Of a stretch of DNA of 64,000 nucleotides, positions 33,204 to 42,349 are shown piece after piece. The DNA lies in the NCBI RefSeq assembly GCF_003018235.1, contig NZ_CP027437.1; one strand, 5' to 3'. The position numbers and the translations under genes are program-made. Positions within the stretch are counted from its first letter, which is position 1. Every line of letters begins with the position of its first letter. The notes under the pieces were generated by a model. That model did no database searches. It was not told the DNA's origin and saw nothing but the letters and a program-made list of their open reading frames with translations. The stretch is from Escherichia coli. GTDB lineage: Bacteria > Pseudomonadota > Gammaproteobacteria > Enterobacterales > Enterobacteriaceae.

Positions 33204-35126
33204 ATGACCGTGTATTCAGCGGGAGGTCCGCGCATGCCTGAGCCGGAAGAAGAACAGGCATTCACTGAAGAGGTGAACAGCGCCTTTTCCGGGCTGCCTC
33301 GTTTTGTGTCTGTAAAGCTGGGGCGCAGGATCAGCAGCGCATGGCAGACAAAGGGTTTTGCCGGTGCACGGGAAAAATTTGCGCTGATGGTTCAGAAGGA
33401 TTTGCCGTTCATTACCGGGGTGAATAAACGTTATGCCATTAATCCGGATGAATTACCGGGGTGGCTGTTTGGTGGGCTGGCATCTGATCAGGCATACGGT
33501 GCGGTTCATTCCATGACCTGGCGATTTAATGCCATGGTGGATGGTGACGACGGGGATGCGCATTTACTGGCTCAGGATCTGTCCGTGTTTCTTATTGCTG
33601 AAATGCAGCACCTGAGTGTTCTTCTTGCGGATGAAGATGCGGATGCGGCGGCAGATGCCATTTATGCCATGGTTGCCGGGCTTGTTGAGCATTTCCGGAT
33701 GGAGCCACCGGACTGGAAGCGTTTTATTGGCAGAAAGCTGACACTGGAGCAACTGACTGTTGCCATCAGCCGGATGCTGAGTGTTCGCTGGTGGCAGGGA
33801 AAACTCAGGGCATTCTCCCGTCGCTGGCGTGAACATCTGCTTATAGCTATGGGTGTCGTTCGTCGGCAGTCTTCACCGCACTGCAGTTATGAATGGGTGC
33901 AGAGGTGGCTGGCGGGGCGTAAGCACGGTCGAAGGCTGATGGCGGAAACGGACGTTGAGGATGAAGAAACAGGAGAAAGATTTTCACTTCTCGATTTGGT
34001 TGACAGCAGCATTTCAGATGCGGAGAAACGCCGCGCAGAGCTGATGACCAGGGTTAAGGGGCTGGAAGATTTAGCCCGTTTTGAAGGTGTGGCGCAGGAG
34101 CAGGGGTATATCGGGCTTTTTTTCACGATGACCGCGCCATCAAAATATCATGCCTGGCTGGAGACAGGATATCGCAATCGTCGTTATAACGGCGCAAGCC
34201 CGAAAGACACACAAAATTATTTCTCCGGACTCTGGCGTCAGATCAGTGCAACGCTGAGGCGCAGGGGGATCGGGATTTTTGGATTAAGAAGTGCCGAACC
34301 GCATCATGACGGAACGCCGCACTGGCATGGTGTTCTCTATGTGCATCAGGAGCATGCTGCCGCCTTACAGGACATTCTTGAGTATTACGCCAACCGCGAT
34401 GATGACGCGGGAAAAACGCCCATCCGCAAAGCAGGAAGAAAATCCCACCTGGAAATAAAACCGGTTCTTGATGATCTGGGGAGTGCCTCTGCCTATATCG
34501 CCAAGCATATTGGAATGAATCTTGACGGTTGTGCGCCAGGCGGAATGAATCATGAAACGGGCCATACACTGGTGGTCACTGCCCGCCACGCCTCGGCGTG
34601 GGCGTCATTATGGGGGATCAAGCAGTTTCAGTTTATAGGCAGCACACCGGTAAGTGTATGGCGTGAGCTGCGTCGCTTTAACAATCAGGCTCATGCTGAC
34701 CGGATAAGCCCGGCGCTGGGTGAGTTACACCGTGCAGCCAGTGAGGGTGACTGGAAAACCTATACCAGGCTGCAGGGTGGACCGTTTGTGGCACGAAGAG
34801 ATCTGGTCCTTCGCACATGGTATCAGCGTTCGGAGGAGCCGGATGAGTGTGGGCTACACACCAGTGCGATCAAAGGTGTTTATATGCCGGGGCGTGATAC
34901 GCCACCGGTAGTGACGCGTTCACGTAACTGGAGGATCACCCGGAACGTTACAACAGGCGCTCTCAATGTTAACCGGGGGTCTGCTTTAACGCCCTGGACT
35001 TGTGTCAATAACTGCATTTCGGGCAGAAAACGACCAGATGGTCATCCTCCGGATCCAGGTATAAGGATCCCTGTTCAACTGGAACTGAACTTCGGGGAAG
35101 AGAATAAAGGGAAAAGTGAGCAGTAA
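33204..35126 (+). CDS. Rolling-circle replication initiation endonuclease (HUH family; P2 gpA-like)
   Basis: GGGAGGA SD; HUH-type motif GTPHWHGVLYV; 640 aa in the position of gene A relative to int-C-cox. Confidence 0.75.
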   Translation: MTVYSAGGPRMPEPEEEQAFTEEVNSAFSGLPRFVSVKLGRRISSAWQTKGFAGAREKFALMVQKDLPFITGVNKRYAINPDELPGWLFGGLASDQAYGAVHSMTWRFNAMVDGDDGDAHLLAQDLSVFLIAEMQHLSVLLADEDADAAADAIYAMVAGLVEHFRMEPPDWKRFIGRKLTLEQLTVAISRMLSVRWWQGKLRAFSRRWREHLLIAMGVVRRQSSPHCSYEWVQRWLAGRKHGRRLMAETDVEDEETGERFSLLDLVDSSISDAEKRRAELMTRVKGLEDLARFEGVAQEQGYIGLFFTMTAPSKYHAWLETGYRNRRYNGASPKDTQNYFSGLWRQISATLRRRGIGIFGLRSAEPHHDGTPHWHGVLYVHQEHAAALQDILEYYANRDDDAGKTPIRKAGRKSHLEIKPVLDDLGSASAYIAKHIGMNLDGCAPGGMNHETGHTLVVTARHASAWASLWGIKQFQFIGSTPVSVWRELRRFNNQAHADRISPALGELHRAASEGDWKTYTRLQGGPFVARRDLVLRTWYQRSEEPDECGLHTSAIKGVYMPGRDTPPVVTRSRNWRITRNVTTGALNVNRGSALTPWTCVNNCISGRKRPDGHPPDPGIRIPVQLELNFGEENKGKSEQ

Positions 35127-35533: not shown

Positions 35534-36613
35534 ATGCAGGCGATCCTGACGGTATTCCCGCAGCGTAATGCCGGGATAACACTGATGAAAACAGGTAATC
35601 TGACAGCGCGGTTCAGGGACGGGCAGAGAATAATGATAAGGGATGTTCCGTCTGTGATGGCTGGGATGCCATCAGGAGAAATTCCGTCATCAGGACAGAG
35701 GCTGGCGGAAGAGGAAGGACTGACGGCTTTCTTTGCTGACGGAAGGGTAATAAAGCGTGCTGGTGGCAGTGATGCCATGGCGCGTTGGGTGAGCAGGATT
35801 GCAGGCTGCCAGTGTGAGAATGGTGATCACGTGGAGAACATGACAACAGCGCGGACAATGCAGGGAGAGGCGCTTCGGTTATGCCATGCCTGTGATAATC
35901 ATCATTATATGAAAGGATATCGGGCGCTGGCAGATGTGGCAGCCAGAAATCGTGCAGAATGGCTGATGGATTATATCAGGATGAGTCTGGGGCTGGGGGA
36001 AGATCATCAGGTGACCATTCCTGAGTTGTTTTGCTGGGCAGTGCTGAATGATGTGGCAGATGCTGTTCCGGTTATGATCGTAAGGCGTATCAGACAATTG
36101 CCGGAAGAGGAAAAGCTGAGCGGCACGATGAAAGAAGCAGATATTAATCCCTGGCAGACATCAGCAGGCACAGTGGTGAAGAAACTGGCAGATAATGCGA
36201 AGAGCGTTAATGTGTGCAATGTGCGGGTCAGACATGCAGTACGCCAGGAAGAACACAAAGAAATGGAAAAACCGGTGCTGAAACTTGTTGCAGACAGTGA
36301 TCCGGCTGCGGGCTATATGAGGAAGCCCAGAATGCAGCGGCTGTCTCTGCCGGGTTATACCTCGTGGGTGAAGCGTCAGCGATGCTGTGGATGCGGGAAA
36401 CCTGCAGATGATCCGCATCACATCACCGGGCACGGTTTTGGTGGTGCAGGGATAAAAGCCAGTGATTTGTTTGTGATCCCGCTGTGTCGGCAATGTCATC
36501 AGGAATTACACAATGACAGCAAGGCATGGGAGGAGAAAAACGGCAGTCAGTTGCTGTGGGTGATAAGGACGCTGGACAGGGCAGCGGGCATTGGCGCTTT
36601 AGTTGGGGGGTAA
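35534..36613 (+). CDS. Hypothetical protein with C-terminal HNH-like Cys/His nuclease motif
   Basis: CCGCGKPADDPHHITGHGFGGAGIKASDLFVIPLCRQCHQELHND; translationally coupled to upstream gene. Confidence 0.55.
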   Translation: MQAILTVFPQRNAGITLMKTGNLTARFRDGQRIMIRDVPSVMAGMPSGEIPSSGQRLAEEEGLTAFFADGRVIKRAGGSDAMARWVSRIAGCQCENGDHVENMTTARTMQGEALRLCHACDNHHYMKGYRALADVAARNRAEWLMDYIRMSLGLGEDHQVTIPELFCWAVLNDVADAVPVMIVRRIRQLPEEEKLSGTMKEADINPWQTSAGTVVKKLADNAKSVNVCNVRVRHAVRQEEHKEMEKPVLKLVADSDPAAGYMRKPRMQRLSLPGYTSWVKRQRCCGCGKPADDPHHITGHGFGGAGIKASDLFVIPLCRQCHQELHNDSKAWEEKNGSQLLWVIRTLDRAAGIGALVGG

Positions 36614-36614
36614 C

Positions 36615-37319
36615 ATGACACCGCAACAGATGGTATGGGCGAGAGAGCAGGTTATTTTTGCACTGAATCCACCGGATAAACGTCAGAAGGGGCAACTGGA
36701 GGCATTTGGTGATTTTGCCAGGTCAGACACCAGGCGTTACGGGAGGCAGAGAAACAGGACACTGAACATTGATGGCCGGTGGTATTGTCAGGATGGTGAT
36801 CCGGTACATGCTGCGGCAACAGCCTGTTATGCAATACAACCGGATATGATCACCAGGGAAGCGTTCAGAACGGCACAACTGAGGAGGAGGATTTATTGTC
36901 TGGAGGATTATCATCGGGCCTGGGTGTTATTCAGTTACAGCTTGCAGAAAAAACGAATACACCATCTTCTGGTCAGTGAGTACATCTGGATGAGGATGTT
37001 CGAGCGGTTGCAGGGGAAACGGGTTACGGACAGGATGACAGGAAATCTGATTGAAATAGCGAGGATGGCTGCATGGAATGCTGCAGTGACAGCCGGTGGG
37101 ATTGTTGCAGGTAAGGTTCTGATTGCTCCTTCATGTGCGGCGCAGATTGCAGGTGTAAAACCAAACACATGGAGTCAGCATTACAAGGCTCACTGGTGTT
37201 TTATGCATGAAGTATGCGATGAACTGGATCATGAGGCGCTGGTGACCATTACAGGAATAAAAAATCACCAAAAAAACGGCGAAAAATATAAATTTGCTAA
37301 AGTGAATATTTTAAGGTAG
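36615..37319 (+). CDS. Hypothetical protein (234 aa); a late-gene antiterminator role is possible by position only
   Basis: Last long ORF before a terminator and the late region; no motif recognised with confidence. Confidence 0.4.
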   Translation: MTPQQMVWAREQVIFALNPPDKRQKGQLEAFGDFARSDTRRYGRQRNRTLNIDGRWYCQDGDPVHAAATACYAIQPDMITREAFRTAQLRRRIYCLEDYHRAWVLFSYSLQKKRIHHLLVSEYIWMRMFERLQGKRVTDRMTGNLIEIARMAAWNAAVTAGGIVAGKVLIAPSCAAQIAGVKPNTWSQHYKAHWCFMHEVCDELDHEALVTITGIKNHQKNGEKYKFAKVNILR

Positions 37320-37365
37320 ATTTGAGGCAAATTTGATAGTCTGCCGTATTTGTAAGCAGAGCATA

Positions 37366-37389
37366 AACCCGCATATTGCGGGTTTTTTT
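37366..37389 (+). terminator. Rho-independent terminator
   Basis: ACCCGC-atatt-GCGGGT hairpin followed by TTTTTTT. Confidence 0.55.
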
Positions 37390-37513
37390 ATGCCCGAAAT
37401 TTTCCCTCAGCGCAATAAATACGCTGGTGGTTGTGAGTACCGGTCTTTCAGCTTGCTGGCTTTTTCGACAAGAGTTATTGGTATGCCACGTTAACCGGAC
37501 AGGGGGAAAAGAC

Positions 37514-37711
37514 ATGCTGAAACAGCAGGATATGACAGAAACCGCCAGGGTGGTGTTTAATGAATTAAGCATTACCGAACCGGCGACCGTCGGGGAAATA
37601 GCGCAGAATACCTGCCTTTCACGTGAACGCTGCCAGTTAATACTGACTCAGCTTGTTATGGCGGGTCTGGCTGACTATCAGTTCGGTTGTTACAGACGCC
37701 TTCAGCAATGA
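37514..37711 (+). CDS. Small winged-helix-like protein (paralog 4)
   Basis: TARVVFNELSITEPATVGEIAQNTCLSRERCQLILTQLVMAGL; GGGGG SD; precedes the methyltransferase. Confidence 0.5.
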   Translation: MLKQQDMTETARVVFNELSITEPATVGEIAQNTCLSRERCQLILTQLVMAGLADYQFGCYRRLQQ

Positions 37712-37862
37712 AGGCATTCTTTTATTGTGAAGATGGGCGACTGGTTAGGTGTTACAGCACCCAACCAGTCATTCGCTCATGCTTGAAGGTCACAAGCGAA
37801 CCCAGGCCCACCGCTTTTGCACAAAAGCCCGGAGAGCCTACCGGAGATGAGTTTGTTGATCT

Positions 37863-38930
37863 ATGACGCATGTTGTAAAAATATCAGAAAGTGAACTGGT
37901 CAATGCTGACTGCCTGGAATTTATACACACGTTGCCAGATGACAGTATTGACCTGATCGTTACCGATCCACCGTACTTTAAAGTGAAACCCAATGGCTGG
38001 GATAACCAGTGGAAGGGTGATGAAGATTACCTGAAGTGGCTGGATCAGTGTCTTGCGCAGTTCTGGCGGGTGCTGAAACCTGCCGGAAGTCTTTACCTGT
38101 TCTGTGGCCATCGCCTGGCATCTGACATCGAAATCATGATGCGTGAACGCTTTAATGTGCTGAACCATATTATCTGGGCGAAGCCGTCCGGACGCTGGAA
38201 CGGATGCAACAAGGAAAGCCTGAGGGCGTATTTCCCGGCCACAGAGCGCATTCTGTTCGCGGAACACTATCTGGAGCCGTATCGCCCGAAAGATGATGGT
38301 TATGAGGCGAAGGGCAGGGCACTGAAACAGCATGTGATGGCACCGCTGATTTCTTACTTTCGTGATGCGCGTGCCGCCCTTGGGATAACGGCAAAACAGA
38401 TTGCTGATGTCACAGGAAAGAAAAACATGGTGTCGCACTGGTTCAGTGCCAGTCAGTGGCAGCTGCCGAACGAAAGCGATTATCTGAAATTACAGGCGCT
38501 GTTTGCCCGGGTGGCAGAAGAGAAGCATCAGCGCGGAGAACTGGAAAAGCCACACCACCAGCTGGTGGTAACGTATACCTCACTGAACCGGCAGTATGCG
38601 GAGTTGCTGAGTGAATACAAAAATCTGCGCCGGTATTTTGGCGTGACGGCGCGGGTCCCGTACACCGATGTGTGGACGCACAAGCCGGTCCAGTTTTACC
38701 CGGGTAAACACCCCTGTGAAAAACCGGCGGAGATGCTGCGGCAGATAATTTGTGCGAGCAGCCGTCCTGGTGACATGGTGGCGGATTTCTTTATGGGGTC
38801 GGGCTCAACCATAAAAGCCGCTATGGCGCTGGGGCGTCGTGCAATTGGTGTTGAACTGGAAGAGGAACGTTTTGCGCAGACCGTGAAAGAGATTAGTCAT
38901 ATCCTGACAGGCTCAATTGATGACGGATAA
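37863..38930 (+). CDS. DNA methyltransferase, beta-class N6-adenine/N4-cytosine
   Basis: Motif IV DPPY (IVTDPPYF) precedes motif I FMGSGST; 355 aa. Confidence 0.85.
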   Translation: MTHVVKISESELVNADCLEFIHTLPDDSIDLIVTDPPYFKVKPNGWDNQWKGDEDYLKWLDQCLAQFWRVLKPAGSLYLFCGHRLASDIEIMMRERFNVLNHIIWAKPSGRWNGCNKESLRAYFPATERILFAEHYLEPYRPKDDGYEAKGRALKQHVMAPLISYFRDARAALGITAKQIADVTGKKNMVSHWFSASQWQLPNESDYLKLQALFARVAEEKHQRGELEKPHHQLVVTYTSLNRQYAELLSEYKNLRRYFGVTARVPYTDVWTHKPVQFYPGKHPCEKPAEMLRQIICASSRPGDMVADFFMGSGSTIKAAMALGRRAIGVELEEERFAQTVKEISHILTGSIDDG

Positions 38931-39381
38931 GGATGGATAAAGACATGGTCAGTTCAGGATGCGAAGCAAGTAAACAGATAAGGCTATAAAAAAAACTGAC
39001 AGTAGAAAAATAGCTTTTTCCCAGGTATTCATGAACACAATCTCTTAAAAGCGCCCGCTGATACCAGCGGGCAATACATACTGGCATTGATGTTAAGTTT
39101 ACAGGTTTCATTTATCGTATCGTGCGACACGACGTTGTTATGTTAATAAGTGTGATTTTTGATGTGAAATGTTTGTTGCGTGTTTTTTGATGGGTTTCTC
39201 ATTTTTCAGGCATCATCTCGTCACTGATGTGCAGCACAGCGATGAGGTGCTACTACTTCCACGGAGCGGATTTTGTCTTTTTTGTGGGTGGTAAAAATCT
39301 CCTTATAGCAGGATGTGATAATTATTTATCAGTATAATCTTATGAGATTGACGCGATTTCTCCGGATTTGTTAGAAGATCA

Positions 39382-39456
39382 TGCATGGTGAATCCACCTC
39401 AGCGGTGGGTCATAATGACCGCCTGTTCGCCGGTTCAATCCCTGCGGGGGCCACCA
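39382..39456 (+). pseudogene. tRNA-Ile(CAU)-like remnant: intact-looking anticodon loop/T-arm/acceptor-CCA 3' half joined to a non-tRNA 5' half
   Basis: 3' part ...GTCATAATGACCGCCTGTTCGCCGGTTCAATCCCTGCGGGGGCCACCA resembles an ileX-type tRNA; no complementary 5' acceptor strand, so no cloverleaf. Confidence 0.3.
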
Positions 39457-39457
39457 T

Positions 39458-39534
39458 GCGCCGTTAGCTCAGCTGGACAGAGCAATTGCCTTCTAAGCAA
39501 TCGGTCACTGGTTCGAATCCAGTATGGCGCACCA
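39458..39534 (+). tRNA. tRNA-Arg (anticodon UCU)
   Basis: Manual cloverleaf: acceptor GCGCCGT/ATGGCGC, D-arm GCTC..GAGC, anticodon loop CTTCTAA, T-arm ACTGG-TTCGAAT-CCAGT, CCA end. Confidence 0.85.
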
Positions 39535-39535
39535 T

Positions 39536-39610
39536 GCGGTCATCGTATAATGGCTATTACCTCGGCCTTCCAGGCTGATGATGCGGGTTCGATTCCAGCT
39601 GGCCGCTCCA
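39536..39610 (+). tRNA. tRNA-Gly (anticodon UCC)
   Basis: Manual cloverleaf: acceptor GCGGTCA/TGGCCGC, anticodon loop CTTCCAG, T-loop TTCGATT, CCA end; close to glyT tRNA as I recall it. Confidence 0.8.
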
Positions 39611-39630
39611 TAGAGGATTATGGGGACTGT

Positions 39631-39768
39631 ATGTTGAGTATTTTTCTGCGTTACCTTTCATCGGTAAAAATAAACACACAACAACTATTTATGCTGGCAT
39701 TAGCAATGATAGTTATTGGTTTTCTCGGAACTTGTTTATTTATTTACTATATTTTTGTCGATAATTAA
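39631..39768 (+). CDS. Hypothetical small hydrophobic peptide (45 aa) in moron position
   Basis: MLSIFLRYLSSVKINTQQLFMLALAMIVIGFLGTCLFIYYIFVDN; weak SD; lies between tRNAs and the esterase gene. Confidence 0.25.
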   Translation: MLSIFLRYLSSVKINTQQLFMLALAMIVIGFLGTCLFIYYIFVDN

Positions 39769-40321
39769 TATTTTTAGTATTTAGCCAGAGTGGCCCAAAC
39801 AGAAAATAAAGTTACTGTGAAACAGGGGGGCCTAATAAAAATAATCACCACTAAATTCGGGGCTTTAAAAATGCTAAGAACATCACATTTCATTATGCCG
39901 GGTACTGGAGAATAACATGATGTTTTGTTAAAAATGATTTTGCATGGTGAATCCCCCTGTGCGGCGGGGCATAATGACAGATGTTTGGTTGCGTATTGTA
40001 TAGGCAAGTTGCGGATTCTGTCTGGTCATTGCAGAATTCACCGGGAGGCACCCGGCACCATGCAGATAATTGTTTTGTGGATGATAATACCAGCCCCTCT
40101 CCGGAGGGGCTTTCTTATGGGCGAAAAAAAGCCCGGGGAGCCGGGCAATAGCATGAGATATACGTTTTTATAGACGTACAGATTTTAATCAGAATTTATG
40201 GGGCTGCGCAACTGCGTGGCCTTTTTTGTTTTGTGGGCTAAGGTTTTCCCCTTTGATTCGCCATGTGGCTGAACCTGTAGCCCGCCACTGTTCAGACGCA
40301 ATCCCGGCAAGGGGAGGAATA

Positions 40322-42349
40322 ATGGCATTTAAACACTACGATCTGGTCTCTGCCAGCAGCGGTGATGAACTGCAAAAGAAACTGACAGAAAAAATAAATG
40401 AAGGGTGGCAGCCATACGGTTCGCCGCTTGTTTCGTATGACGATAACGGGATGAAAATTATTCAGGCCATTGCAGCAGAGGGTGATGTCAGGATCCCGGT
40501 TGAAACGCCTGATGATGGTGGTGATTCACCGGTCACAATGACCTCCGGTGCACCTGATTATTATTATGTTGTTGTGCTTGCCGGACAGTCCAACGGCATG
40601 GCCTACGGTGAGGGGCTTCCGTTACCGGACTCTTATGACCGCCCGGACCCGCGCATTAAACAGCTGGCACGCCGCAGTACAGTGACGCCGGGTGGGGACG
40701 CCTGTGCATACAATGATGTGATTCCGGCTGACCATTGTCTGCATGATGTACAGGATATGAGCGGTGTTAATCATCCGAAAGCGGACCTGAATAAGGGGCA
40801 GTATGGCTGTGTCAGTCAGGGGCTGCATATTGCCAAAAAACTGCTGTCGTATATCCCGCAGAATGCAGGGATACTTCTGGTGCCCTGCTGCCGTGGTGGT
40901 TCTGCATTCACCACCGGGGCTGACGGCACATTCAGTGAGGTCACCGGCGCATCCGCTGACGCTGCACGCTGGGGTGCCGGTAAACCCCTGTATCAGGACA
41001 TGGTCAGCCGGACAAAAGCGGCGCTGGCCAAGAACCCGAAAAACAGGCTGCTGGCGGTGGTATGGATGCAGGGCGAGGCAGACCTTGCGTCAGGCAGTCA
41101 GCAGCATAACGGGTTATTCACGGCCATGGTTCAGCAGTTCCGGACTGACCTGTCCTCACTTGCTGCGCAGTGCGTGAGTGGCAATGCTGCCACGGTGCCG
41201 TGGATTTGTGGTGATACCACGTATTACTGGAAGGCCACTTATGGCACACAGTATGAAGCCATTTATGGAGCCTATAAGAATCTGTCCGCACAGAATATTT
41301 TCTTTGTACCGTTCCTGACAGATGAAAACGGCGCAAACACGCCAACGAACCAGCCAGCGGAAGACCCGGATATTGTGGCTGTGGGGTATTACGGTGCGGC
41401 ATCACGAACACAGGCGAACTGGACGACAGCGCAACGTGACAGCCATTTCAGCACCTGGGCGCGTCGCGGCATCATTTCTGACCGCCTTGCGTCAGCTATT
41501 CTGGTGCACGCGGGACGTACGTCAGGTTTCATTACCGGTGAAGTTTCTTCTCCGGACACTGCATCCGGTGACGGTGGTTCGTCCACTGATGCGGGTACGG
41601 ATGCGGGGACCGGCACTTCCGGAACAGGAAGTGATGACGCTACCGGAACGACACCAGCCACCGCTGCCATTATTCTGAGTGCAGACGGAGGGGATGTTTC
41701 GGCACAGGGCTGGACGGTGGAAGGCACCACGGTGACCACCACGGCAAACACGGTGACTTCATCGGGTGAGGCGCTGGCGCAGAATGTGCTGAGTGTTCCG
41801 AAACAGAGCGGGGCAGCATGGAAGCTTGTTCATACCACCACAGATGAGCCAGCGGAACTGCTGAACAATGGCGGTGAGTTCCTGTGTCGTTTCCGTATCA
41901 CGGATACTGCCATTGCTGAGGGGCGTTATGCCTTTGGTCTTTACTGGCTTCCGGACGCACAGAAGATACCAGCCGGTGCGACATTCAATAAAACAGGAAG
42001 CGGGATGTCCCCGTCCATGCTCAACTTCTATGTCCAGACGGATGGCAGCAACATAAACCTGTTATCACACTGCAGTACGAAGAGTGCAGGGAATCTGAAG
42101 ATTGGCTCATTCGGTGCATTTAACAATGAATGGCATACCTTCCGTCTTCGCTACCATGGTGGCAATACGGCAAGAGCAACGGTGACGCTGGACAGTCAGG
42201 TGGTGGGAGATATAACGCTGTTATGTGCGCCGTCAGCGGCCAGTGCCGGTGACACTCTGTCGATGATAAGTATCACATCGGGTGATACATACAGTATTGA
42301 AGTGGAAAGCCTGAGTGTGACGGTGAACGGGGCTGCGGCAGCGGCGTGA
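40322..42349 (+). CDS. Prophage-type sialate O-acetylesterase-like protein (nanS-p-like)
   Basis: GGGGAGG SD; N-terminal MAFKHYDLV... domain then VVLAGQSNGMAYGEG esterase-like segment; located between tRNAs and holin as in Stx-type lambdoid prophages (recollection). Confidence 0.55.
   Translation: MAFKHYDLVSASSGDELQKKLTEKINEGWQPYGSPLVSYDDNGMKIIQAIAAEGDVRIPVETPDDGGDSPVTMTSGAPDYYYVVVLAGQSNGMAYGEGLPLPDSYDRPDPRIKQLARRSTVTPGGDACAYNDVIPADHCLHDVQDMSGVNHPKADLNKGQYGCVSQGLHIAKKLLSYIPQNAGILLVPCCRGGSAFTTGADGTFSEVTGASADAARWGAGKPLYQDMVSRTKAALAKNPKNRLLAVVWMQGEADLASGSQQHNGLFTAMVQQFRTDLSSLAAQCVSGNAATVPWICGDTTYYWKATYGTQYEAIYGAYKNLSAQNIFFVPFLTDENGANTPTNQPAEDPDIVAVGYYGAASRTQANWTTAQRDSHFSTWARRGIISDRLASAILVHAGRTSGFITGEVSSPDTASGDGGSSTDAGTDAGTGTSGTGSDDATGTTPATAAIILSADGGDVSAQGWTVEGTTVTTTANTVTSSGEALAQNVLSVPKQSGAAWKLVHTTTDEPAELLNNGGEFLCRFRITDTAIAEGRYAFGLYWLPDAQKIPAGATFNKTGSGMSPSMLNFYVQTDGSNINLLSHCSTKSAGNLKIGSFGAFNNEWHTFRLRYHGGNTARATVTLDSQVVGDITLLCAPSAASAGDTLSMISITSGDTYSIEVESLSVTVNGAAAAA

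Follow-up and report, generated by a model that had tools for sequence, protein, structure and literature searches.

A conserved structured RNA leader precedes an M.EcoGII-type methyltransferase gene in the probable late operon of an Escherichia coli prophage

We analyzed a 64,000-nucleotide stretch of Escherichia coli DNA (contig NZ_CP027437.1 of assembly GCF_003018235.1; hereafter "the window") and focused on positions 37514 to 38930, where an open reading frame (ORF) for a small winged-helix protein is followed by an ORF for a DNA methyltransferase. We estimate a probability of roughly 0.7 that this interval comprises the first two genes of the Q-dependent late operon of a lambdoid prophage, with an ortholog of the methyltransferase M.EcoGII and a structured leader RNA. 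As a restriction-modification (R-M) finding, the locus is ordinary and largely already known, and it includes no hidden restriction enzyme. What is new is evidence that the apparent gap between the two genes is a conserved structured leader dedicated to the M.EcoGII-type methylase family, with an on/off pairing that can be tested, and that the winged-helix gene is a constrained yet dispensable companion of the cassette.

The winged-helix ORF (37514 to 37711, plus strand) encodes 65 amino acids (aa) from an ATG start with GGGGGA located 6 nt upstream. The next ORF on the same strand, which encodes the 355-aa methyltransferase (37863 to 38930), begins after a gap of 151 nt. By its sequence, the latter is an intact ortholog of M.EcoGII, a beta-class N6-adenine DNA methyltransferase. 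The two proteins are identical at 302 of 350 positions (86%, E 0.0) over their full length, and the true identity may be slightly higher because the M.EcoGII reference was machine-read from the supplement of a published study (PMC11551740). The enzyme carries TDPPY at residues 34 to 38 (DPPY codons at 37965 to 37976) and FMGSG at residues 310 to 314 (codons at 38790 to 38804). It matches the Pfam family N6_N4_Mtase over residues 29 to 341 (E 6e-43) and the PADLOC model MTase_II (E 1.6e-156), and its nearest solved structures match with E 3e-26. M.EcoGII was described from prophages of E. coli O104:H4 C227-11 as a sequence-nonspecific adenine-N6 methyltransferase that is silent in the lysogen, harmful if overexpressed, and also able to methylate RNA (PMC5778455). 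The same report notes a close M.EcoGII homolog in phage 1720a-02, which is the record H4 that we recovered among the best DNA matches to this region of the window. In three related prophages (L005, L007, and L010, by our numbering of comparison loci), the early region carries further methyltransferases (Dam, PF05869, and the C5 family DNA_methylase, PF00145), so the late M.EcoGII-type enzyme is one of several.

The assignment to a late operon draws on the genes and signals that surround the pair. Upstream lies a Q antitermination gene (36615 to 37319, plus strand; likely start ATG 36615, with the frame open from TTG 36603), which matches PHROG 304 (E 8e-42) and Pfam Phage_antiter_Q (PF06323, E 1.6e-27) and whose 97%-identical copy is annotated as Q in RefSeq. 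A candidate late promoter PR' can be read from the sequence at 37294 to 37345 (plus strand), with a -35 element TTGCTA (37294 to 37299), a 17-nt spacer, a -10 element TAGATT (37317 to 37322), and an initial transcribed motif, AAATTTGATAGTCTGCC (37329 to 37345), that contains a -10-like pause element; the candidate promoter overlaps the stop codon of Q. In alignment A1, the PF06323-type Q genes of Klebsiella L007 and E. coli 755 L004 are likewise followed by a -10-like hexamer and then by TTGATAnTnTGCC, and TTGATAGTCTGCC, downstream of the candidate PR', recurs behind other PF06323-type Q genes. A consensus promoter scan of the plus strand from 36400 to 39800 found no promoter for either the methyltransferase or the winged-helix gene.

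An intrinsic terminator follows at 37365 to 37389 (plus strand), with a 9-bp GC-rich stem (37365 to 37385), a 3-nt loop, and seven T residues. A terminator stands at the same place behind four different Q families in related prophages. Because the upstream gene is the Q antiterminator, and because the same layout occurs behind other Q families ahead of lysis genes, the most natural reading of this terminator is as tR' of the late promoter, most likely overridden by Q-modified RNA polymerase. Weak Rfam matches to isrK and a Trp leader at 37327 to 37391 reflect the terminator hairpin only and were set aside. Beyond the terminator, on the same strand, come the two genes of interest, then tRNA-Arg(UCU) and tRNA-Gly(UCC) (39458 to 39610), and further downstream the holin, lysozyme, Rz1, and terminase genes, as seen in a 97%-identical E. 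coli prophage annotated in RefSeq. A preliminary description of this DNA had listed the 65-aa winged-helix ORF, the gap of about 150 nt, the DPPY methyltransferase, the strong terminator upstream, and the tRNAs and lysis genes downstream, and we recovered all of these features where it had placed them.

The 151-nt gap behaves like a noncoding RNA element rather than a neutral spacer. Among relatives, it is 147 to 151 nt long and 0.71 to 0.89 identical between genera, whereas the flanking coding DNA is 0.69 to 0.79 identical with saturated synonymous sites. Where the spacer reaches 0.87 (Salmonella versus Klebsiella) or 0.89 (Klebsiella versus Pantoea), the flanking coding sequences are only 0.71 to 0.75 identical. 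Spacer insertions and deletions between relatives are single bases, and an AUG conserved within the spacer yields upstream ORFs that range from 7 to 42 codons across loci. Single-base changes of this kind, together with the varying open frame, indicate that the spacer is noncoding. A 59-aa ORF that spans it in the window (37687 to 37866, ending in ATGA at the methyltransferase start) was rejected as a gene since the open frame shifts between loci.

This element is also tied to one gene family. When an 18-base motif from the spacer was used to scan one genome per species, 32 matches were obtained, two of which were chance matches; the 30 genuine matches all lie directly upstream of an M.EcoGII-type gene, one of them a pseudogene. 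A covariance model (R1), derived from the window's own group of leaders, finds the leader once in the window, at 37723 to 37865 on the plus strand (143 nt, 144 bits). The same model matches 61 of 80 distant loci that were retrieved with a 61%-identical Serratia methylase, in each case at full length and ending at the start codon of the next ORF. A search of Rfam 15 with positions 37700 to 37862 gave no match at E <= 1, and the leaders of six relatives likewise gave none.

RNAalifold and manual inspection yielded five helices on the plus strand. P1 (37726 to 37730 with 37790 to 37794, UGUGA/UCACA) encloses P2 (37733 to 37738 with 37775 to 37780, AUGGGC/GCUCAU) and the 12- to 13-bp hairpin P3 (37739 to 37751 with 37758 to 37770), and these are followed by P4 (37804 to 37807 with 37836 to 37839, AGGC/GCCU) and the short hairpin P5 (37813 to 37818 with 37823 to 37828). 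In an alignment of 39 representatives (A3), 94.6% of cells are paired compared to 28 to 45% in slid controls, and five pairs of P3 show compensatory changes. A broader alignment (A5), which was fitted to model R1 and therefore favors the structure, has changes on both sides of 25 of 32 pairs, 91.7% of cells paired compared to 26 to 43% in slid controls, and a covariation score of 0.49 compared to 0.15 in shuffles. Many G-U pairs are valid on the plus strand only, unpaired nucleotides of the leader are invariant, and fold z-scores for five relatives range from -1.8 to -3.9, with the window at -3.7. The spacer is thus a conserved RNA structure with covariation that is found only upstream of this methylase family.

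Just ahead of the leader, and overlapping its first bases, is a terminator-like hairpin, GCCTTCAG/CTGAAGGC (37698 to 37726, plus strand), with the winged-helix stop codon in its loop and a U-rich tract on its 3' side. A hairpin of variable sequence occupies this position in nearly all of the 39 representatives, including those that have no winged-helix ORF. A separate set of more distant methylase relatives (L188, L191 to L198, L202, L203, and L206) lacks the leader and instead has a perfect LexA-box-like sequence, CTGTATATATATACAG, upstream of position 701. The same loci share a second conserved element, GCCTTGAGTACCTGAGACCC...GGAGAGGAAGC, that is also present upstream of the leader in a group that carries Com-like ORFs (see below).

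The 3' end of the leader suggests how it might act. The methylase gene has no canonical Shine-Dalgarno (SD) sequence and instead carries a conserved UGAUC 1 nt upstream of its AUG. We presume that UGAUC is SD-like, given its complementarity to GAUCA near the 3' end of 16S rRNA. An invariant segment, GGUCACAAGCG, is able to pair with CGCUUacUGAUC at the methylase start site. This predicted helix, P6 (37788 to 37798 with approximately 37850 to 37861, plus strand), would cover the SD-like UGAUC (37857 to 37861) next to AUG 37863, and of five relatives that were folded, three (the window, L092, and L126) show it in their minimum-free-energy structure. Since P6 and P1 both use UCACA, they are mutually exclusive. 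Other groups carry compensatory variants of P6, including UCACAAGCG/CGCUUaUGA (UCAcAAGCG with CGCUUaUGA, start codon included), GUCAUAAG/CUUAUGAC, and GAUCA/UGGUC, and groups whose shared segment is UCAU have AUGA/UCAU as P1. The leader probably gates translation of the methylase.

From these features we propose a model with two locks. In the lysogen, transcripts from the late promoter would halt at tR', so that the toxic methylase stays unexpressed. Upon induction, RNA polymerase modified by Q would pass both tR' and the second hairpin, where the winged-helix gene ends. Late synthesis of the methylase would follow, and phage DNA would be methylated before packaging, which may shield it from many adenine-sensitive restriction systems in the next host. 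The leader would add a translational lock, in which the off state has GGUCACAAGCG paired to the start region and its SD-like UGAUC (P6) and the on state has it paired to the upstream UGUGA (P1, stacked on P2 and P3). Candidate triggers for the switch are the methylase itself (autoregulation), the winged-helix protein (as a Com-like activator), a small ligand, or ribosomes that finish translating the winged-helix ORF, whose stop codon lies 15 nt upstream. We give about even odds to a more general proposal, namely that positions 37723 to 37865 represent a widespread, uncatalogued class of cis-regulatory RNA that serves as a translational switch for the M.EcoGII-type promiscuous methylases of temperate phages, with a partner that varies by lineage. 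This trans-acting partner may be the winged-helix protein here and a Com-like zinc ribbon elsewhere, or else the methylase or a small ligand.

Several observations weigh against this interpretation of the locus. P1, P2, and P6 are almost invariant in the window's own group, and support for them consequently comes from more distant groups on the model-fitted alignment; one set of relatives (group A) has leaders without a clear P6. The minus strand of the window leader folds at least as well as the plus strand (z -4.4). In several relatives, P5 reads as a perfect palindrome at the DNA level and could equally be a protein operator. The candidate PR' is sub-consensus (8 of 12 positions match) and falls below the threshold of the consensus promoter scan. 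Lastly, nonspecific adenine methylation by the window enzyme is presumed from its 86% identity to M.EcoGII alone.

The leader might instead be an autoregulatory site: the methylase would bind or modify this RNA and so limit how much enzyme is made, and the winged-helix protein would act late in some unrelated way, for example by binding a protein of the host or the phage. The methylase is the sole gene that always accompanies the leader, the unpaired leader nucleotides are invariant, and M.EcoGII both methylates RNA and is toxic in excess (PMC5778455), all of which would suit such feedback. However, this explanation does not account for why, within its clade, the winged-helix gene is tightly linked at a fixed spacing. 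We regard it as possible, though less likely than not.

The winged-helix ORF is a real gene under strong purifying selection. Its ratio of nonsynonymous to synonymous changes (dN/dS) is 0.03 to 0.18 wherever dS can be estimated, and its conservation exceeds that of the adjoining methylase. The product is an acidic protein (pI 5.1) with two cysteines that belongs to PHROG 331, a family with no function assigned. Its homologs form 326 clusters at 90% identity, all of them from Enterobacterales; most carry the name "TrmB family transcriptional regulator" or "hypothetical." Only 59 representatives at 50% identity were found among 1.84 billion proteins. The automated name that the Prokaryotic Genome Annotation Pipeline (PGAP) gives to the protein, "TrmB family transcriptional regulator," is matched by a weak hit to the TrmB profile (PF01978, E 0.0029, 17.8 bits), and at only 65 aa the protein has no room for the TrmB effector domain. 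Searches against NCBIfam and, by sequence, against Protein Data Bank (PDB) chains returned no match. The predicted structure is a winged helix (pLDDT 90.9) whose matches are to the generic fold, and the best of these are the DNA-binding domains of IclR, MarR, and ArsR proteins. The closest structures of comparable size include Z-alpha domains, and this assignment was dropped because their Asn, Tyr, and Trp contact residues are not seen in the alignment. The speculative idea of a DpnI-type winged helix that reads N6-methyladenine (m6A) was also set aside, as no such domain is among the structural matches listed and PMC11037411 offers no precedent for a stand-alone reader next to a methyltransferase. 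In the 5' untranslated region (UTR) of the gene, CGACAAGAGTTATTGGTATGCCAC (37467 to 37489, plus strand) is near-invariant from E. coli to Pantoea in alignment A1, whereas the rest of the UTR diverges.

Structural resemblance to DNA-binding domains invites the view that the protein is a transcription factor that acts on the intergenic palindromes and represses or times methylase transcription. Suitable DNA sites can be found, namely the 13-bp inverted repeat formed by the arms of P3 (37739 to 37770) and the near-perfect 16-bp palindrome GCTTTTGCACAAAAGC (37813 to 37828), and the P3 arms covary in L092, the locus with the most divergent winged-helix protein. The palindromes are nevertheless retained where the winged-helix gene is missing, and their G-U pairs and single-sided changes fit pairing of plus-strand RNA. 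An acidic protein of only 65 aa with no evident dimerization element is a poor candidate for this role, and Q already sets transcription. We consider a DNA-binding regulator of this kind unlikely.

The distribution of the winged-helix gene bears on its role. A search with the winged-helix protein gave 80 viral contigs, 77 of them informative; in 74 of these the methylase follows at a fixed distance, and in the other three a deletion has its breakpoint within the leader. In the opposite direction, the winged-helix ORF is missing from 9 of 30 species-level copies of the cassette (about 30%), all of which retain the leader; some of the nine keep just the last codons of the gene, within the conserved terminator-like hairpin. 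None of the 80 distant methylase loci carries a winged-helix homolog. The leader must therefore work without the protein in those loci, and the protein is not an obligatory controller. We conclude that it is a clade-specific, constrained accessory that the cassette as a whole does not require. Its role could be that of a Com-like activator or of a DNA-binding regulator; it may also act as a partner of the methylase or do something unrelated. At four loci (L004 from E. coli 755, positions 5131 to 6033, and L017, L033, and L039), the methylase has been swapped for other cargo (a DUF3927 protein, IraM, or other ORFs) with breakpoints inside the leader, and the winged-helix gene is intact.

A different small gene takes this place in some of the distant loci. 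Ten of the 80 (L166, L180, L181, L183, L185, L186, L190, L200, L204, and L205, at approximately positions 520 to 670) have an ORF of 36 to 48 aa for a zinc-ribbon protein between the leader and the methylase. These Mu Com-like ORFs match PHROG 6417 and PHROG 13819 at E of about 1e-5 (the annotations hit are "translational regulator" at E 1e-5 and "gpCom" at E 1.4e-5), and the Pfam family Com at E 0.016 only. In these loci, the switch segment pairs with the AUG of the small ORF, and a second hairpin, AGUGCC...GGCACU, holds the SD sequence (GGAGG) of the methylase. The com-mom operon of phage Mu and com-hin1523 of FluMu are known earlier examples of a toxic, promiscuous adenine-modification gene that is controlled at the level of translation (PMC3299994). 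By analogy, the winged-helix protein could bind the leader RNA, favor P1 over P6, and open the methylase start, as Mu Com does for mom. Against an activator of this type, leader and methyltransferase are kept in about 9 of 30 species-level copies, and in all 80 distant loci, that have no winged-helix gene, and the acidity of the protein family (pI about 4.6 to 5.6) would be unusual for an RNA binder. We view this role for the winged-helix protein as possible, though also less likely than not.

The preliminary description had proposed that the small gene and the methylase resemble the controller and modification half of a type II R-M system, with the endonuclease perhaps encoded by one of the unassigned ORFs. 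A small helix-turn-helix (HTH)-type gene at fixed spacing upstream of a methyltransferase gene, together with an ORF with an HNH motif 1.2 kb upstream, would indeed be compatible with a controller (C) protein and a neighboring endonuclease. C proteins have an Xre-type HTH fold of about 70 to 100 aa, C-boxes upstream of their genes, and linkage to an endonuclease gene. The window protein is a winged helix without a match to HTH_3, and neither an inverted repeat nor a C-box was found at 37390 to 37513, upstream of its gene. Its neighbors are a DUF968 gene, Q, the methyltransferase gene, tRNAs, an esterase gene, and lysis genes, and none of the genes adjoining the methylase encodes an endonuclease, as the preliminary description had also noted. 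The surroundings (Q, tRNAs, and late genes) are those of a late operon, and the pair occupies this same slot in thousands of copies. Furthermore, the methyltransferase is orthologous to a nonspecific enzyme that requires no cognate site. The R-M controller reading is thus already contradicted, and we consider it extremely improbable. The description of an orphan, protective methylase under dedicated control fared better: the gene is an orphan, it is probably protective, and dedicated control is apparent, although not of the R-M controller type.

The HNH-motif ORF (35534 to 36613, plus strand) is not an endonuclease partner of the methylase. It encodes a DUF968/YdfU-like protein with a C-terminal HNH-like motif, lies in the early (nin-like) region that is expressed before the late genes, and matches PHROG 96 (E 2e-115); its RefSeq homolog is named "DUF968 domain-containing protein." PADLOC assigns it to no defense system, and a DUF968 protein is also encoded upstream of Q in the E. 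coli 755 prophage, which is without the methylase. A hidden endonuclease at this ORF was therefore rejected on the evidence of PHROGs, NCBIfam, PADLOC, and its occurrence without the methyltransferase.

The cassette is widespread. DNA from 37300 to 39000 matches 39 phage records at 82 to 87% identity, nearly all of them Shiga toxin (Stx)-converting phages, and 2,156 of 5,426 complete E. coli genomes, with up to 8 copies per genome. The annotated order in phages phiP27 and Stx2_14040 is Q, small ORF, DNA methylase, tRNAs, stxAB, and lysis genes, and the pair of small ORF and methylase between q and the tRNAs has been remarked on previously (PMC8456039). Prophages of Salmonella, Klebsiella, and Pantoea have the small ORF, spacer, and methylase downstream of Q genes of other Pfam families (PF06530/DUF1133, PF06323, and PF03589) and upstream of lysis genes. 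Overall, the order of Q, terminator, winged-helix ORF (where present), leader of about 150 nt, methylase, and lysis genes is kept across Enterobacterales with four unrelated Q families.

Other features of the prophage were noted in passing. On the plus strand, a P2 gpA-like nicking endonuclease gene (33204 to 35126; PHROG 91, E 2e-173; RefSeq homolog "replication endonuclease") serves as the replication gene in a prophage whose Q and late region are lambdoid. A strong Rfam match to STnc100 (39912 to 40122, plus strand; 145.6 bits, E 1.8e-33) lies just upstream of a nanS-p-like esterase ORF (40322 to 42349, PHROG 143). On the minus strand at 40124 to 40179, sub-threshold matches to the enterohemorrhagic E. 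coli (EHEC) prophage small RNAs AsxR (44.5 bits compared to a gathering score of 63) and AgvB lie antisense to the DNA that immediately precedes the esterase gene. A tmRNA gene with the tag ANDENYALAA is located at 4756 to 5118 (minus strand); tmRNA genes are common sites of prophage integration.

M.EcoGII is a tool enzyme in wide use, and its relatives are present in about 40% of complete E. coli genomes, often adjoining Shiga toxin genes. Explanations of how the toxic enzyme is silenced and released have so far stopped at the statement that it is "not expressed in the lysogen." Our analysis places the methylase behind the tR' terminator of a Q-dependent late operon, and the on/off pairing of the leader offers a plausible, concrete, and testable mechanism that parallels com-mom control in Mu. 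A candidate RNA family and an uncharacterized winged-helix family are thereby added to the regulatory parts of lambdoid and Stx phages.

Comparisons with known systems help to place the locus. Like C.PvuII and C.AhdI, the winged-helix gene is a small HTH-type gene just upstream of an R-M-type gene, but those controllers are Xre-type five-helix bundles, and here there is a winged helix in a phage late operon with no C-box and no endonuclease. The methylase has in common with M.EcoGII and M.EcoGI the order of DPPY, target-recognition region, and FxGxG, as well as a prophage location, with 86% aa identity to M.EcoGII; the winged-helix gene, the Q and tR' setting, and the conserved leader are not described in the M.EcoGII publication (PMC5778455). 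Related Stx phages share both genes, the 150-nt spacer, and the position between Q and the tRNAs at 83 to 87% DNA identity. The window prophage differs from them in having no stx genes, a PF06323-type Q, a P2 gpA-like replication gene, and the tRNAs tRNA-Arg(UCU) and tRNA-Gly(UCC), which fill the slot occupied in those phages by tRNAs and then stxAB.

The regulatory layout is that of PR'/tR' antitermination in lambda and of the StxS short transcript (PMC7547250), with Q, a strong intrinsic terminator within about 70 nt, and late genes beyond. In the window, by contrast, the promoter and pause elements are putative, and a second terminator-like hairpin stands behind the first late gene. Two published accounts of the Stx-phage pR' region do not mention the methylase.

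The closest parallel in control is with com-mom of Mu and com-hin1523 of FluMu (PMC3299994). In each case, a late, host-toxic, sequence-promiscuous adenine-modification gene has a small regulator gene just upstream in the operon. The start region of the modification gene is predicted to be buried in RNA structure, and sister lineages of the window methylase even carry a Com-like ORF. The parts are nevertheless different. Mu Com is a four-cysteine zinc ribbon (PF10122), whereas the window protein is a winged helix with two cysteines and lacks a ribbon of the PF10122 type, Com-like ORFs being confined to the sister lineages. The window methylase is a beta-class enzyme, unlike Mom or the Dam-like Hia5 family, to which it is unrelated. 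Finally, the window leader is larger than its Mu counterpart, comprises multiple helices, and, unlike that of com-mom, is present also without any small gene.

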